DNA of 64,000 nucleotides from a virus. The notes beneath the pieces were generated by a model. That model had not been told where the DNA came from. It worked only from the letters and a program-made list of their open reading frames with translations, and did no database searches. Numbering within the stretch: the stretch's first letter is position 1; every line of letters begins with the position of its first letter. The stretch is taken from IMG/VR virus record IMGVR_UViG_3300042868_012782, positions 18,771-82,770 of that record; one strand, written 5' to 3'. The translations under genes and the position numbers were made by a program. Shown in pieces: positions 47,847-58,825 of this stretch.

Positions 47847-48251
47847 GTGAACGAGTGCATTTTTATTGGTAACCTAACCCGAGATCCTGAAGTTCGCAGC
47901 GTTGGCACAGAACACCGCGTAGCAAGATTCACTCTTGCGGTGAACTCTGGTCGCAAAAGCAAGGAGGGGGAAGAACAGGTAGCTTACATAGATTGCGAAG
48001 TGTGGGATAAGGCGGCAGATGTTATTGCGAAATACATCACCAAAGGCAGCAAGTTGTGTGTGCAGGCAGTAGCACGCACAGAAAGCTGGGCAGACAAGGC
48101 TACTGGCAGTAAGCGCAGCGCTTTGCGATTTCGCGTACACAAGTTCCATTTTGTTGGAGTCAAAACCGGATCTTCGCCAGCAGCTGTTGGCGCAGAGATC
48201 GACGAAGAAGCAGGTTTTCAGCCTGACAACTCTGAGGAAATACCCTTCTGA
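47847..48251 (+). CDS. ssb: single-stranded DNA-binding protein
   Basis: IGNLTRDPEVR; C-terminal EEIPF. Confidence 0.95.
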   Translation: MNECIFIGNLTRDPEVRSVGTEHRVARFTLAVNSGRKSKEGEEQVAYIDCEVWDKAADVIAKYITKGSKLCVQAVARTESWADKATGSKRSALRFRVHKFHFVGVKTGSSPAAVGAEIDEEAGFQPDNSEEIPF

Positions 48252-49849
48252 TGTCTAAAATCCTTTTGGTCGGTGAGGCTACGTGGCTACAAACTGGATA
48301 TGCGACTTACATGTTGCAGATCGCCAGAAGATTGGTGGCCTCAGGCCATGAGGTGGGTGAGTTAGCCTGTTACGGCGACCCAAATGATCCAAGGCGGGCC
48401 GGGAGTCCCTGGCCCGCCTTTTTCTTGACTACCTTGAGTAGCGATTATCCGCCATGCGGATTTTATCAGTCTCAACCTGCGTCAGGCGCAACTGTTTTTG
48501 AGGAAGCAGTTCTTGCATTCAAACCAGACATAGTAATTTCTGCGCGTGATCCATGGACAGACGCATTCATCCACTACTCTCCCCTCAGGGAATTCTATCG
48601 ATGGATTTATATGCATCCAGTAGATGGAGAACCCCAAGATGAGGAATGGTTGGGCGCTGTGTCGCAAGCCGATGCGGTCTTGGCTTATTCTGACTATGGA
48701 CAAAATGTATTGGCACGTTATCCAGGAATTCGACTGGGTGGCGTAGCTGCCCCAGGTGCAGAAGCCGACATATTTCATCCAGTGGATCAAAAACAAGCTA
48801 GGAAAATGTTGGGGATTCCAGCCGACGCATTAGTCGTCGGAGCAGTAATGAGGAATCAGGGGCGCAAACTATACCCAGAACTGTTTGAGTCATTCTCAAG
48901 ACTGCTAGAGTCTGCACCCAGCCATATTTCTGAAAGATTATTTTTGTACTGCCACACCGCCTGGCCTGACGTGGGATGGGATTTACCCAAGTATCTTCTG
49001 CGTTATTCGTGTGCTCACAGGTGTCTTTTCACCTTTGGGTGCCGAGCATGCAATAGGCCGTTCTCCTCTCTGTGGCAAGAACCTGCTGCTGGGTGCCCCC
49101 ACTGCGGGTCAGATCTAGTTTCGACCCCCACAGCATCAATGGGGCTGCCTCGCAGCCTGATGGGGTCGGTGTATTCATCCATGGACGTATGCGTTCAATA
49201 CTCGGTGTGTGAGGGCTTCGGTATGCCCCAGGTGGAATCAGCCTGTTGTGCCACGCCAGTTATGTCGGTAGACCATACGGCAATGGCGTCTGTTTGTCGC
49301 CAAATCGGCGGAACAACCATACGGGTAGGAAGACATTTTACAGAAAATGAGACTGGGCGAATTCTAGCTCTTCCAGACAACGACCACCTAATTCAAGAAC
49401 TAATTACCTTTTTCTCGTCGCCACCAGCTCTTAGACGAGCATCAGGAATTCGTCAAAGAACGCTAGCGTTGCAGTCTTTCGACTACGATCTTGCGGGGCA
49501 GGTCTGGAAGAATGCTGTAGCTTCGGTGCCTCCGCCCGTATCGCTGTATAATCGCCCGCCCTTGAAACTTCCCGAAATGAAAAGGCCACCTGAGCACCTG
49601 CAAAACAGAGAGTGGGTTGAGCAGTCATTTATGAGTGCCTTGGGTATCGCCCCCATAAAAGCTGGCTATCTTGTTCAGCGAATGACCCGAGATCTCAATA
49701 GAGGTTATTCAGACACGTTGTTCGTGCCGTCGCAGTTCTGTCTCCCTGGGCCATGCGGAAGAATGTCGACCTTTGACAGAGATGCCGCCTGGAGGATTTT
49801 TGAAGCAGAGAGGAGACGGCTTGAGTTCTGGGAGGGGCGACGACGATGA
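48251..49849 (+). CDS. glycosyltransferase GT-B (GT4) with inserted Zn ribbon
   Basis: TGYA, RNQGRK, CRAC...CPHC, EGFGMPQVE. Confidence 0.88.
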   Translation: MSKILLVGEATWLQTGYATYMLQIARRLVASGHEVGELACYGDPNDPRRAGSPWPAFFLTTLSSDYPPCGFYQSQPASGATVFEEAVLAFKPDIVISARDPWTDAFIHYSPLREFYRWIYMHPVDGEPQDEEWLGAVSQADAVLAYSDYGQNVLARYPGIRLGGVAAPGAEADIFHPVDQKQARKMLGIPADALVVGAVMRNQGRKLYPELFESFSRLLESAPSHISERLFLYCHTAWPDVGWDLPKYLLRYSCAHRCLFTFGCRACNRPFSSLWQEPAAGCPHCGSDLVSTPTASMGLPRSLMGSVYSSMDVCVQYSVCEGFGMPQVESACCATPVMSVDHTAMASVCRQIGGTTIRVGRHFTENETGRILALPDNDHLIQELITFFSSPPALRRASGIRQRTLALQSFDYDLAGQVWKNAVASVPPPVSLYNRPPLKLPEMKRPPEHLQNREWVEQSFMSALGIAPIKAGYLVQRMTRDLNRGYSDTLFVPSQFCLPGPCGRMSTFDRDAAWRIFEAERRRLEFWEGRRR

Positions 49850-50982
49850 ATGTCTTGTACATCGGCAACTTTCATGATGGAACAGGCTACGCCAGAGCTA
49901 ATTCTGAATGCGCGGTAGCTCTTGATGCTGCTGGTGCGAATGTTATCTGTAGACCCATAGCGTTTAATGGGGGGCGAAAACCTTGTCCTGTCAGGATATT
50001 GCAGCTTGAAGATAAGCCAGTTCCAGAACGGATTGACGCTGTCATACAGCACACATTGCCTTCGGCCATGGTTTATGATGCCAGATGTGGAGTAAACGTT
50101 TCTCAGTTCTACTACGAGTCTAGTCATTTTCAGTCATCAGGATGGTCGCTGCGTCTTAATCAAATGGACTTGATCATCACGACTCCTGGAGTTTCAGAAG
50201 ATTCGTGCCGAAACAGCATGGTCAAAACGCCAACAGTAGGCATTCCGCTGCCGAGTGATCCATCTCGGTATTGTGTGTCGTATCCTGCGCCATCATGGCT
50301 CAGTCCATATATTCGCGACGAGAAATTTATTTTTTACACAGTTTCTGAAAACGTCAGAAGAAAAAATCTGGGCGGCTTAATCAAAGCTTTTTTGGTTGCG
50401 TTCCAAGCCACCGATCCCGTTGTGCTTGTTGTGAAAACTGGCGGCGACGGAAAGAAAGTCTACTCAATGATCCAGGAGTTGGCTCAGGGTCTAAAGTTGT
50501 GTCGTCATCCTGAGATCGTTGTTGTAACCGATCGCTTGTCAGACGACGAGCTAATGGGTCTGCACGGCAATGCTGATTGCTTTGTCCAAGCATCTTGCGG
50601 CGAGGCTTGGAGCTATCCTGCCTTTGACGCCATGGCAATGGGCAAAACTCCAATTGTGCCCGACACAAAAACGTATCGATCATATATTTCTAATGAGACA
50701 GGCTACTTGATCCCCACCTATGCCGAGCCTTGCTCTGGTGGAACTGACGAGCAGGTAGATCTTTATCGATCAGACGAATCATGGCAAGTTCCCTTTACTC
50801 TGGAGCTTGCTGATGCGATGCAGAGGGCTTACAGGGAGGAAAACCAGCGCAACACTAAGTCGTCGCTGGGTCTGGATGTGGCGTACCGATTCACCCCCGA
50901 AAGGGTCGGCAAGACTCTTCTGGAGGCTATAACCAATGCGGCGCAAGAAAAACTGGCAAGACTTCATGGGCGATCTTCGTGA
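49846..50982 (+). CDS. glycosyltransferase GT-B (GT4)
   Basis: TGYA, RRKNL, GEAWSYPAFDAMAMG. Confidence 0.88.
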   Translation: MNVLYIGNFHDGTGYARANSECAVALDAAGANVICRPIAFNGGRKPCPVRILQLEDKPVPERIDAVIQHTLPSAMVYDARCGVNVSQFYYESSHFQSSGWSLRLNQMDLIITTPGVSEDSCRNSMVKTPTVGIPLPSDPSRYCVSYPAPSWLSPYIRDEKFIFYTVSENVRRKNLGGLIKAFLVAFQATDPVVLVVKTGGDGKKVYSMIQELAQGLKLCRHPEIVVVTDRLSDDELMGLHGNADCFVQASCGEAWSYPAFDAMAMGKTPIVPDTKTYRSYISNETGYLIPTYAEPCSGGTDEQVDLYRSDESWQVPFTLELADAMQRAYREENQRNTKSSLGLDVAYRFTPERVGKTLLEAITNAAQEKLARLHGRSS

Positions 50983-57624: not shown

Positions 57625-58361
57625 TAGTTTCGTTTGCTCCATATCAGTTCACTCTGATGGGCACTGAAACCTGTGGTCAGATTGCTGGAGAGATCCACAC
57701 GGTCAGAATTCACATTAAGCAAGGTGCCTGGGCAACGCAACATGGCGGACGCACAGAAATTTATCATGACCTACCGGTCAATCTTGGGCGATCCGAGTCG
57801 GAACTACTAGCGTGCGGAATTGCCAACGACATAGAAGCTCATAGGTGGTTTCACTCGGACACCAGCAAAGACCTCTCCATTAGTGAGGCCTGCATGCGTC
57901 GAGGAGGCATCTGTTCGGTTGCGCATAGCGCAATAGGACGTTTCGGCCCTTATCAATTGCCATTCTCCTCTGGTTTTGAGCGTCACGTCAGCCTATTCCA
58001 CATGCCCAATATCGATCGTCTTGACCACCATTACAATCGCCCATCAGATGCATTGAGCCTCACGGTAATGACAGGTATGGCAGTCAAAGCAATGGCAGCC
58101 GACGACTGGGAGGCAGTAGGTAAGGTACTCAATCAGGCTTGGCGCCTCAGACTTGACACAATCCCGCAGTCAGTAATGGAATACCATAATCGACTAATCC
58201 TGAATGGGGCGTGGGGCTGCTCGTGGGTTGGTCCCGACGTCATTATGGCGGTGGGCGACCGCTCTACCATGGCTCATGCCGCAGCAAGTGATGATCTTCA
58301 AGAGATTTACTACAGAATTGATCAGGAGGGGGCACGACCATGCGCCCTAATTAATTCATGA
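57621..58361 (+). CDS. degenerate GHMP kinase (HddA-like heptose-phosphate kinase)
   Basis: MIVSFAPYQFTLMG, GKVLNQAWRL, GAWG, IDQEGA; Gly-rich ATP motifs missing. Confidence 0.55.
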   Translation: MIVSFAPYQFTLMGTETCGQIAGEIHTVRIHIKQGAWATQHGGRTEIYHDLPVNLGRSESELLACGIANDIEAHRWFHSDTSKDLSISEACMRRGGICSVAHSAIGRFGPYQLPFSSGFERHVSLFHMPNIDRLDHHYNRPSDALSLTVMTGMAVKAMAADDWEAVGKVLNQAWRLRLDTIPQSVMEYHNRLILNGAWGCSWVGPDVIMAVGDRSTMAHAAASDDLQEIYYRIDQEGARPCALINS

Positions 58362-58825
58362 TGCAGTTTATGCTTCCGTCTTTAGGAGCATCTCACCTAT
58401 CTCTAGCCATGATTCACTGCGGCAACGAACTAGTGAGTCGCGGCCATCAAGTTAGAGTTTTCGTCCAAGACAAGGGTAGGCCTTCAGTTCGGCCAATTTT
58501 TCCAGTTTTTGACGCTTCCTATTCGTATCTGGATTCCTCTCCCATGGTCATAGTGGGAGTGCCGCCACTACGATCATCATTCGTGTCACCAGCAGGACGA
58601 AAAGCCTTATTTTATGTGTGGGATTTGGAGTGGACACAACGAGGTCTGTTTCGATGGTCAGATGTCCGTAGCTACTATCAGACTTATCCAATTCTCGCCA
58701 GGTCTGAAACGCACGCCCGAGTACTTTCCAACACATGGGGGTGCCGTGTGGCGGGCATAGTTGAAGATTTTGACGCAGACGCAATGGAGAATGCATTCAA
58801 ATGCTTACATACGAATATCTCGTAG
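58358..58825 (+). CDS. half GT-B-like protein
   Basis: NELVSRGHQV.VF...FYVWDLEW. Confidence 0.5.
   Translation: MMQFMLPSLGASHLSLAMIHCGNELVSRGHQVRVFVQDKGRPSVRPIFPVFDASYSYLDSSPMVIVGVPPLRSSFVSPAGRKALFYVWDLEWTQRGLFRWSDVRSYYQTYPILARSETHARVLSNTWGCRVAGIVEDFDADAMENAFKCLHTNIS

Follow-up and report, generated by a model that had tools for sequence, protein, structure and literature searches.

Which glycan, if any, is made by the glycosyltransferase-like genes that follow ssb in the replication operon of this phage, and onto which acceptor is it placed? The window, by which we mean the whole 64,000-nucleotide stretch of DNA analyzed here, derives from an uncultured phage from a lake. Downstream of ssb (47847–48251, + strand; PF00436, 5.4e-25) it contains 15 co-directional ORFs (48251–58825, + strand), among them three GT4 genes, PhoH, a methyltransferase-like (MT-like) ORF, a Cys4 and GT-A-like gene (ZnGTA), a GT2, a LicC/IspD-like nucleotidyltransferase (NTase), a GT-B fold, a FemAB/ATE-like GNAT, a GHMP fold, and three unknowns. 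As stated in a preliminary description, the genes start directly after ssb, whose TGA overlaps the ATG of the first gene, GT532, by one base (junction TGATG), and almost all of them overlap (by 1–58 nt, the sole exception being a 68-nt gap before position 51751). No TM-like segment was found in the block by a hydrophobicity scan with 19-residue windows, which also agrees with that description. The gene content was largely as described, except that some ORFs are weak, that PhoH (50936–51682) lies inside the run and not at its end, and that the block is not an “island”.

Synteny across relatives, which had been proposed as a check, was determined by iterative HMM for 80 related viral loci. A collinear seven-gene core (GT532-GT378-GT330-MTlike-NTase-GTB265-u155) was found in about 66 of them, and optional cassettes occupy three fixed slots (PhoH; ZnGTA-GT2; u198-ATE-GHMP). 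The minimal form was present in 28 loci and the full form in six; the window represents this maximal form, with all three slots filled. The core is common to aquatic phages of a very large, uncultured clade, its gene order is maintained down to 35% amino-acid identity, and it is ancestral within the clade. The term “island” does not suit a block that is ancestral, collinear in relatives, and similar in GC content (0.47–0.51) to its flanks.

Several ORFs lack canonical motifs, as might be expected of recently captured host LPS or EPS genes in decay, but the probability of such an origin is negligible. Besides the flank-like GC content and the conserved order, homologues (such as those of the NTase) occurred solely on metagenome contigs no longer than ~194–195 kb, a phage-like size, none of which was named cellular. 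In four independent metagenome studies, the block was >99% identical without indels, and the 40 listed population SNPs had 33 synonymous versus 8 nonsynonymous effects. Because of the missing indels and this synonymous excess in natural populations, we conclude that the genes are not decaying; they are under purifying selection. A recent host origin was thus rejected by synteny, contig context, and SNP pattern.

The three GT4 genes of the preliminary description were all recovered, two of them by Pfam and GT532 (core gene 1; 48251–49849) by an invariant motif and its AF2 fold. A Zn ribbon (C264/C267/C282/C285) is inserted in GT532, whose C-terminus is prolonged by a helical stretch of ~100 aa. 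By itself the sequence scores below the Pfam cut-offs, and 320 stretches in IMG/VR match it. Its EX7E motif (E321/E329) and CxxC..CxxC ribbon were invariant in 29 aligned sequences. The AF2 model (pLDDT 87) matched BshA, chlorovirus B736L, and MshA with VIA Z scores of ~28, and the best Foldseek match was B736L (3oy2; E 1.4e-16; VIA Z 28.0, rmsd 2.9, 371 aligned). Judged from these residues and the model, GT532 is a canonical retaining-type GT4 despite its sub-cut-off Pfam score. Nearly every member of the GT378 family (core gene 2; 49846–50982; PF00534, 1.5e-11) retains E-x7-D/E and RKN motifs, the exceptions being three poorly aligned rows. In GT330 (core gene 3; 51751–52743; GT4 C-domain, PF00534, 1.2e-15), Ser replaces the first Glu of EX7E and LEAM is retained, while the motif is entirely gone in minimal-form relatives.

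The remaining core genes are more heterogeneous. Core gene 4 (52716–53183) is a short class-I MT-like ORF, an assignment backed by weak CheR/CmoA matches but not by the GxGxG SAM loop, which a motif census found in no lineage. The NTase (core gene 5; 54646–55386) is LicC/IspD/MobA-like (PF12804, 1.1e-10; NCBIfam matches), as anticipated from its initial annotation as LicC-like. Its AAGxGRRM loop is intact in this phage, and minimal-form relatives have LSYEITKGMKS in its place; the catalytic motifs of the NTase and GT330 are kept only where the accessory GT2/ZnGTA cassette occurs. GTB265 (core gene 6; 55383–56180) had neither a Pfam match nor a clear EX7E motif. It shows a compact GT-B fold with ESM Atlas TM scores of 0.72–0.81 to GT4 clusters and feature matches to CgeB-like Glyco_trans_1_2. 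The last core gene, u155 (58358–58825), is possibly a lone GT4 N-terminal-like domain, a weak lead from sequence comparison: 4 of 13 members match PF13439 (GT4 N-domain; best E 0.01), and the 1200 family representatives at 50% identity are all ~150–170 aa long.

Among the optional genes, the PhoH-like ATPase in slot 1 (PF02562, 2.5e-71) was detected in 17 loci. Slot 2 contains ZnGTA (53128–53964; 29 loci), with an invariant Cys4 module (C26/C29/C42/C70) followed by a weakly GT-A-like domain (TarS 5tze, E 0.044), and the one GT2 that had been assigned to the block (53936–54703; PF00535, 3.5e-17; 25 loci), in which the motifs DDGSTD, LDADD, and ED..LW are intact in the alignment. Slot 3 begins with u198 (56174–56770; 8 loci), for which no match was found in Pfam, PDB, or hhalign. 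Hence, of the four ORFs initially regarded as eroded GT-like genes, GTB265 has a GT-B fold, ZnGTA and u155 resemble glycosyltransferases weakly, and u198 is unsupported. The adjacent GNAT-fold transferase (56754–57434) was correctly described as ATE-like, its ATE_C (PF04377, 29.1 bits) and Acetyltransf_6 (PF13480, 26 bits) scores both exceeding the cut-off; relatives also turn up in other genomic contexts. A 67-aa ORF (57421–57624) was invariably located 3′ of this gene in a three-frame comparison of eight loci, and conservation of the 112-aa ORF listed by the program begins only at the ATG of the 67-aa ORF, a candidate start. For the GHMP-kinase-like ORF (57615–58361), an ESM Atlas lead, the proposed fold was confirmed for residues 110–238 only, which aligned to mevalonate kinase over 119 residues (VIA Z 11.5, rmsd 2.9), and the best 34 VIA rows were all GHMP; the whole model reached a pLDDT of 55 and the phosphate loop is degenerate (consensus PFGEGLEKHG). 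The right flank is formed by nuc255 (58801–59568, + strand; 59 loci), which is not a glyco gene: the consensus of its C-terminus, IDLFLP..AIEVDGPSH, is reminiscent of a Vsr/PD-(D/E)xK nuclease, with weak matches to AbaSI and phrog_8446 (annotated HNH endonuclease).

Where the module has its minimal form, catalytic motifs survive in GT532 and GT378 alone, the substitute motifs of the NTase (LSYEITKGMKS) and GT330 (EHNIxNLLCAIAxGC) are themselves conserved, and every lineage lacks the SAM loop of the MT-like ORF. These features would suit a mostly non-catalytic assembly, in which recruited motif-less folds scaffold or regulate the replication factory or the takeover of the host, with sugar transfer reduced to a minor activity or lost. 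We consider this very unlikely, as EX7E is invariant in GT532, E-x7-E/D is found in almost all GT378 members, and this phage has fully canonical motifs in its GT2 and NTase. From the motif patterns, the simplest reading would be that the transferase system works and includes helper subunits.

Could the acceptor be DNA? Replisome-linked transferases might glycosylate new phage DNA, with base activation of a type other than ThyA/TET. All members have the module at one position of the replication operon, flanked by ssb and the nuclease-like gene, which would suit a role linked to DNA, and in about 80 loci it invariably comes right after ssb and shows translational coupling. In known DNA sugar pathways, kinases and cytidylyltransferases accompany GT-A or GT-B enzymes (10.1101/2023.12.21.572611), the Zn modules of GT532 and ZnGTA could bind nucleic acid, and the window contains a C5-cytosine methylase (3978–5624) and a dNMP kinase (40469–41203). 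In addition, a GT2-GT4 pair (15335–17121, + strand; PF00535, 6e-8, and PF13692, 4.6e-17) lies ~0.7 kb upstream of a divergent ThyX-like gene, and this GT4-ThyX adjacency is maintained in genomes G000–G003. The pair accounts for two of the four glycosyltransferases reported elsewhere in the window (at 15335 and 16045); a GT2-domain gene at 61089–62132 (− strand; PF00535, 2.6e-6) was also verified, but the candidate at 32019 was sub-threshold (E 7e-4). The ThyX-like gene is probably a plain thymidylate synthase, as it retains HR..S....S.R and is the only one found in the genomes analyzed. Neither a ThyA-type hydroxymethylase nor a hydroxylase was detected in nine genomes (with completeness of 95% or more for seven), and a search run without positive control gave no Tet_JBP match. 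The C5-methylase is sporadic, being missing from G004 and also from G001, despite the latter's full gene set. Furthermore, all eight genomes analyzed avoid palindromes very strongly (for example, ACGT with 32 observed versus 341 expected, and many 6-mers at zero), which makes blanket-protected DNA unlikely because such DNA would not be expected to avoid them. Proteins of the GT532 and GT378 families have a near-neutral or acidic pI (median ~6.2). The block does resemble DNA-sugar clusters (T4 alpha/beta-GT; C5-MT with 5mYOX/TET and GT; ThyA homologue with arabinosyltransferases) in its clustered GT-A/GT-B enzymes, kinases, and cytidylyltransferases with replication-linked expression. It differs in that their defining base-activating enzyme was not found in the genomes analyzed (for TET, with the uncontrolled search) and that the C5-methylase is 44 kb away. 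DNA hypermodification, already weakened in the preliminary description, is further weakened by the ThyA/TET negatives, the sporadic methylase, and palindrome avoidance, and appears quite unlikely.

Lack of TM segments had been taken to imply a cytoplasmic acceptor. Peripheral GT4 and GT2 enzymes such as PimA, WaaG, TarM, and TarS use membrane-bound acceptors without TM segments, and such enzymes rank among the top structural matches here, so this inference is unsafe. The soluble GT4/GT2 enzymes might act on a small molecule or, at the inner membrane face, on acceptors that are lipid-linked or teichoic-acid-like; the outcome would be a made metabolite or a remodeled cell surface, leading to superinfection exclusion or to progeny not sticking to debris. 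The top structural matches (BshA, MshA, PimA, WaaG, TarM, PglA, HepE) indeed have lipid, polymer, or small-molecule acceptors, ZnGTA weakly matches TarS, and the NTase is similar to LicC, TarI, and IspD, enzymes by which phospho-alcohols are activated for use in surface polymers. However, structural ranking of GT4 enzymes does not predict the acceptor, and the block encodes no membrane protein at all, nor a flippase, a polymerase, or an initiating phosphoglycosyl transferase. Moreover, the core is conserved over genomes of 31–55% GC, probably with very different hosts, which makes a host-specific surface polymer unlikely as common acceptor. Synthesis of a host-envelope or soluble glycan is thus somewhat unlikely.

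We tentatively favor cytoplasmic O-glycosylation of the phage's own proteins, for which the acceptor is a candidate only. Glycosylation of virion proteins, as initially hypothesized, still reads best in this qualified form. The proposed mucin-like fibre corresponds to a real Thr-rich protein of 1369 aa (23959–28068, + strand; 16.4% Thr), a Thr/Pro-rich Cys-module protein without Pfam match, with 301 residues in tracts of at least 60% S/T/P and conserved in G001 and G002. A virion role of this protein is unsupported, and the gene sits among early and nucleotide-metabolism genes outside the virion block. The virion block of G002 encodes a (TSGPT)n-T19 (poly-Thr) and LamG-like protein, and large S/T/P-rich proteins occur in seven of eight clade genomes, a count that covers no unrelated phages, so that the tract frequency may be ordinary. 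Also counting against a protein acceptor are G004, in which the core is present and no S/T/P-rich protein passes the threshold used, and the Foldseek neighbours of GT532, which include small-molecule- and lipid-acceptor enzymes.

A similar logic is known from the serine-rich-repeat adhesins of Gram-positives, which are O-glycosylated by soluble cytoplasmic enzymes (GtfA/GtfB plus Gtf3, GtfC, and others); there, a GT4 enzyme and its catalytically inactive GT-B partner start the glycan, and further soluble GT-B and GT-A enzymes, encoded side by side, extend it. The candidate phage system would share the soluble, GT4-started, multi-enzyme modification of long Ser/Thr-rich tracts. It differs in the missing accessory Sec system and its placement in the replication operon; no close sequence relation was detectable, and GtfA with its DUF1975 insert was absent among the structural matches listed. 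Self-encoded glycosylation in chloroviruses and giant viruses (PBCV-1 A064R, NY-2A B736L, mimivirus fibril clusters) is a precedent, in which soluble GTs, a methyltransferase, and sugar-activation genes build virion-protein glycans independently of the host, although the acceptor of B736L itself is unknown (PMC9614988). These are eukaryotic viruses, their enzymes share just 17–19% identity with GT532, and, unlike the phage module, they have no Zn ribbon or replisome linkage. For mycobacteriophages, PMC12619734 summarizes GT and O-methyltransferase clusters that lie outside the virion module of these tailed phages and glycosylate virion proteins, with glycans on capsid and tail-tube C-termini. 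Those clusters are small (2–4 genes) and not known to have conserved synteny with replication genes, and the MT-like ORF of our block differs by lacking the SAM loop.

For the favored protein glycosylation, the module would be transcribed and translated jointly with the replication genes. An activated donor may be supplied by the GHMP-like protein and the LicC/IspD-like NTase. GT532 and GT378, both canonical retaining GT4s, would start the glycan; its extension would fall to GT330 and the intact GT2, possibly together with ZnGTA and GTB265, and its tailoring to the FemAB/ATE-like GNAT. Motif-less members (the MT-like ORF and u155; NTase and GT330 in minimal-form relatives) may be non-catalytic partners, like GtfB for GtfA. 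The pathway is partly guesswork because several members lack catalytic motifs. The block could plausibly, if by no means certainly, represent a lineage-specific, soluble, multi-enzyme glycosylation module. Its likeliest acceptors, ahead of phage DNA, would be Ser/Thr/Pro-rich tracts of large phage proteins, and its products may be O-glycosylated fibres or decoration proteins.

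The IMG/VR viral contig from which the window was taken (bases 18771–82770) is 82.8 kb long, with a CheckV completeness of 56%. Its genes in the window include a C5-cytosine methylase, a GT2-GT4 pair located ~0.7 kb upstream of a ThyX-like gene, a sigma factor, a 1369-aa Thr-rich protein, ribonucleotide reductase, helicases, a primase, a dNMP kinase, ssb and a split DnaE, between whose halves an exonuclease gene is located. A complete relative with terminal repeats (G002, 149 kb) is collinear with this contig and encodes terminase, portal and decoration proteins where the contig is truncated. 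The block following ssb (window positions 48251–58825) comprises 15 co-directional ORFs. The junction between ssb and the first glycosyltransferase gene, GT532 (48251–49849), reads TGATG with one base in common, and the other junctions are mostly overlaps of 4–58 nt; the sole gap, of 68 nt, precedes position 51751. No TM-like hydrophobic window was found in any block ORF, in agreement with the preliminary description. Megablast of positions 46000–60000 against cultured phages yielded no match, and neither did tblastn of GT378 (49846–50982). With GT532, tblastn retrieved only generic GT4 matches of 21–27% identity, and a DnaE-N search found only relatives at ≤34% identity. Judged from these searches, a cultured relative does not appear to be available for comparison. 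The ‘moraphage’ lineage (PMC12619734), considered as a description of the clade, is probably another group, as its core gene list comprises DNA polymerase I together with T4-like virion proteins and DnaE is unmentioned.

GT532 matched 320 stretches in IMG/VR. Among the 80 best loci, on contigs of up to 238 kb, nearly all have DnaE, the exonuclease and ssb upstream. Iterative HMM searches over the ORFs of these 80 loci revealed a shared collinear plan, GT532-GT378-(PhoH)-GT330-MTlike-(ZnGTA-GT2)-NTase-GTB265-(u198-ATE-67aa-GHMPlike)-u155, where parentheses mark genes that may be lacking; next in order come a nuclease-like gene and two unknowns. The seven-gene minimal form occurs in 28 loci and the full form, as in the window, in six; departures from the plan are mostly due to contig ends. 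At 50% identity the u155 family (58358–58825 in the window) comprises 1200 representatives, each a stand-alone protein of ~155 aa. Because one collinear plan extends across the 80 loci and the u155 family is this large, the block is regarded as an ancient core with three optional cassettes, of which the window phage has the maximal version. The earlier label of an ‘island’ was wrong, since the GC content of the block equals that of its flanks and the relatives share this single plan. Directly 3′ of the module, 59 loci have a gene for a 255-aa protein (nuc255, 58801–59568 in the window). Its N-terminal half resembles a helix-turn-helix, its C-terminal IDLFLP..AIEVDGPSH is a motif typical of Vsr/PD-(D/E)xK nucleases, and the gene appears to be a homing-endonuclease-like one that became fixed and domesticated.

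Four independent lake and marine studies yielded contigs covering the block at >99% identity and with zero indels. At near-identity, the phage is present in lake metagenomes of at least ten studies; the public data sets listed as containing it are all assembled contigs, with neither RNA nor raw long reads among them. The 40 substitutions listed in the block had 33 synonymous and 8 nonsynonymous effects. This excess and the lack of indels show that the motif-poor members, described previously as eroded, are under selection. In addition, searches with GT532 and with the nucleotidyltransferase (NTase, 54646–55386) located homologues exclusively on metagenome contigs of phage-like length (up to ~195 kb). 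Recent capture of the genes from a host, followed by their decay, had been named as the alternative that would overturn the initial proposal; it is excluded by this population variation and homologue distribution. One substitution, T>C at position 50980, occurred in two metagenome runs (X8 and X9, from two of the four studies) and converts the GT378 stop TGA to CGA. It lengthens GT378 without altering the PhoH protein encoded in the overlapping frame.

One of the compared genomes, G003 (IMGVR_UViG_3300024509_000007, recorded as 221 kb and 100% complete), contains ~70 kb twice in the same order, and the replication-GT module, the ThyX-like gene and the C5-methylase are each present in duplicate. 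A jumbo genome with two modules was rejected as explanation. Bases 1–69 kb and 146–216 kb are collinear copies at mostly ~45–97% amino-acid identity, and G003 therefore most likely joins two related phages in one chimeric assembly.

The gene content reported in the preliminary description was essentially right, as judged by Pfam, family motifs and structure models. Of the three GT4 proposed after ssb, GT378 and GT330 (51751–52743) have Pfam GT4 domains, whereas GT532 alone remains below the Pfam cut-offs. In the GT532 family, however, E321-x7-E329 and a CxxC..CxxC insert are invariant in 29 sequences, and the AF2 model (pLDDT 87) has a GT-B fold of two Rossmann-like domains that is canonical GT4 across residues 1–430. 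In VIA comparisons the model reached Z 28.4 to 2jjm (B. anthracis BA1558; rmsd 3.1, 346 aligned), 28.0 to 3oy2 (chlorovirus B736L) and 27.4 to MshA. GT532 is thus predicted to be a canonical GT4 despite its sub-threshold Pfam score. T4 alpha- and beta-GT were absent among the 50 matches shown for GT532 by Foldseek or VIA, which does not exclude T4-type enzymes. E-x7-D/E was present in nearly all of the 58 GT378 sequences; the three without it align poorly. GT330 has S-x7-E in place of EX7E, and its LEAM is retained only where the accessory cassette is present. GTB265 (55383–56180; 265 aa) adopts a GT-B fold in its ESM Atlas model, with TM scores of 0.72–0.81 to GT4 clusters, and its consensus shows no evident EX7E; one of its Atlas feature matches was a T4-Gluco-transf cluster (rank 21, score 0.95), to be taken as a lead only. 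A 13-bp GC-rich, terminator-like hairpin with a T-run lies 140 nt inside GT532 (48391–48420). It was rejected as a conserved terminator, as there is almost no covariation and its arms, present in several relatives, are conserved codons for RRA and WPA.

The PhoH gene (50936–51682) was recovered by Pfam as called, and the GT2 at 53936–54703 was borne out by PF00535 (63 bits) and a complete motif set, with DDGSTD, LDADD and ED..LW.R conserved in 12 sequences. Other assignments held in part. The NTase, proposed to be LicC-like, has an NTP_transf_3/IspD-like fold by Pfam and an intact Gly-rich loop (AAGIGRRM in the window), but no NCBIfam equivalog specified its substrate class, the best matches scoring ≤39 bits against cut-offs of 180–700. 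The loop reads AAGxGxRM in maximal and most intermediate forms of the block; every minimal-form relative has instead LSYEITKGMKS (EITKGMKS at the loop), which is itself conserved. For the GHMP-kinase-like ORF (57615–58361; 248 aa), the fold of the C-domain (residues 110–238) was supported, with Z 11.5 to 2oi2 (rmsd 2.9, 119 aligned) compared with ≤5 for unrelated structures, and the 34 best structural matches were all GHMP proteins, although the model is poor overall (N-domain pLDDT <50). Its canonical phosphate loop is lost: motif II has the consensus LPFGEGLEKHG compared with PxGSGLGSSA, retaining P, G, G and L and lacking GSSA. The ATE-like gene (56754–57434) scored above the cut-off with the ATE_C family (PF04377; 29.1 bits, cut-off 25, residues 113–186), but no ATE_N match was obtained and NCBIfam arginyltransferase models reached only 18–21 bits against cut-offs of 170–252. 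Since this stretch also scores 26 bits with PF13480, only membership in the FemAB/ATE GNAT superfamily can be regarded as certain from these profiles.

The ATE/FemAB-like gene and the 67-aa ORF downstream (57421–57624; EPRQ.LEV.TPKGRGR.WLVTDYG conserved) move as a pair (56754–57624 in the window; loci L002–L010). It also occurs in a different genomic context: in the three loci examined (L002, L006 and L008), no further block genes were found in its vicinity apart from a weak GT378-like match on the opposite strand. A programmed frameshift fusing the ATE-like gene to an overlapping 112-aa ORF was discarded, as conservation is confined to the region past the ATE stop and the 67-aa ORF begins at 57421.

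The methyltransferase-like ORF (52716–53183) is present as described, but reads RLSVGE in the window, and the GxGxG SAM loop of motif I is absent from all lineages (52 sequences). The four ‘eroded GT-like ORFs’ fared unequally. GTB265 has the GT-B fold, ZnGTA (53128–53964; 278 aa) combines an invariant Cys4 with a weak TarS-like GT-A signal, u155 offered only a weak GT4 N-domain lead, and u198 (56174–56770) had no assignable fold. Profile searches against PDB sequences with GTB265, u198, the GHMP-like ORF and u261 gave no matches, and hhalign of the unknown ORFs against the phage's own GT families gave probabilities <3%. That the module is largely non-catalytic is a minor possibility.

The fixed place of the module after ssb would suit enzymes that hypermodify phage DNA, but every specific test was contrary to this reading. 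ThyA-type enzymes, the family that produces the precursors of hmC, hmU and 5hoC (PMC13326640), were absent (PF00303) from all nine genomes searched, seven of them at least 95% complete; the control matched in 10 of 14. TET/JBP (PF12851) was found in none of five genomes in a search without a positive control. The preliminary description had likewise seen no hydroxymethylase, TET/JBP or deazaguanine gene in the window. The TET route needs a C5-methylase (10.1101/2023.12.21.572611), and this gene (PF00145) is missing from G001, although this genome carries all genes of the full-form block, and from G004. Short palindromes are very strongly avoided in all eight genomes analyzed (G000–G005, G007 and G008), with mean z values of −2 to −5.8 for 4-mer palindromes and approximately +0.3 for other words. 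ACGT, CGCG, TGCA and GGCC are depleted (ACGT: 32 observed vs 341 expected in G002, 0 vs 200 in G003), and many 6-mers are absent, such as GCCGGC, CTGCAG and GGATCC. This extreme avoidance implies that these genomes are under heavy type II restriction pressure. It is the mark of DNA open to attack by restriction enzymes rather than blanket-protected, and is thus indirect evidence against modified nucleosides; motif-specific modification is still compatible with it. Furthermore, neither the GT532 nor the GT378 family is basic. DNA hypermodification, already considered weakened at the outset, is made improbable by these results. We consider it very unlikely that the target of a seven-protein machine of two active GT4 and five pseudo-enzyme folds in the replisome operon is replicating DNA, or a protein of the replisome or nucleoid, modified without hydroxymethyl- or hydroxy-pyrimidines or TET.

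The C5-cytosine methylase of the window (3978–5624; 548 aa) has a ~175-aa insert between its two Pfam halves. Only three of five genomes checked have the gene, and in G002 the homologue takes the form of an 815-aa fusion. The ThyX-like protein (17835–18638) has a low Pfam Thy1 score and THR..S....S.R instead of RHR. Relative to the Thy1 profile it is permuted, with positions 59–184 first and positions 12–57 at the C-terminus, where the HWSPFEH segment has moved. Its gene lies ~1 kb downstream of a GT4 in G000–G003 (after the GT2-GT4 pair in G000–G002), and the distant G004 has a canonical ThyX elsewhere. As a candidate hidden hydroxymethylase it was rejected: most of the ThyX motif is kept and it is the sole thymidylate synthase found in those genomes, so that it is probably ordinary.

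Another possibility is peripheral enzymes whose acceptors are small molecules or lie at the membrane face, as the nearest structures of GT532 are of this kind. Against it, no gene for a membrane component is present, and a polymer specific to one host is ill-suited to a core common to such different genomes.

Glycosylation of virion proteins, the first of the two original proposals, is the reading that we favor over DNA modification, tentatively and on circumstantial grounds. The 1369-aa protein (23959–28068) contains 16% Thr and has 301 residues in S/T/P-rich tracts, which its homologues in G001 and G002 retain; residues ~1101–1220 are an example of a Thr-rich tract. These two genomes also encode a (TSGPT)n-T19 and LamG-like protein within the virion block. 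Seven of eight clade genomes spanning 31–55% GC encode large S/T/P-rich proteins (the scan covered clade genomes); G004, which has the core and lacks such a protein, counts against the protein reading. The S/T/P-rich proteins are candidate acceptors, the 1369-aa protein being a putative virion protein, and fit soluble O-glycosylation circumstantially. Such a role would parallel the glycosylation of chloroviruses and mycobacteriophages and that of serine-rich-repeat adhesins, in which an active GT4 has an inactive GT-B partner.

The G002 virion-block protein (G002:28536–29537, L097:8536–9537; 333 aa) has N-terminal (TSGPT)n-T19 followed by a concanavalin/LamG-type lectin-like domain recognized by eye, and is a plausible candidate for a glycosylated decoration or fibre tip. 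Elsewhere in this genome (G002:58304–58534), a prolyl-4-hydroxylase-type 2OG-Fe(II) oxygenase (PF13640, 9e-11) adjoins the homologue of the window GT2 at 61089–62132. The oxygenase is absent from G000 and G001, and no counterpart is located near 62132–62182 in the window.

Glycosylation encoded by viruses has been studied extensively in giant viruses, while among mycobacteriophages its demonstration is recent and limited to a few. The block is a novel variety of it, distinguished by its replisome linkage, pseudo-enzyme content and very wide distribution. For the popular reading that GT genes beside replication genes signify DNA glucosylation, our results provide clear negative evidence. If the block did act on replicating DNA or on replisome or nucleoid proteins by the unlikely route described above, it would represent a new class of nucleic-acid-linked glycosylation. 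The grading of these genes from fully motif-bearing to motif-less forms offers a natural series for studying how enzymes turn into non-catalytic partners. Conserved and embedded among the replisome genes, the glycosylation module is a hallmark of very diverse uncultured lake and marine phages, and if their virion fibres are coated with phage-made glycans, adsorption, stability, grazing and immune recognition would be affected in abundant aquatic phages.
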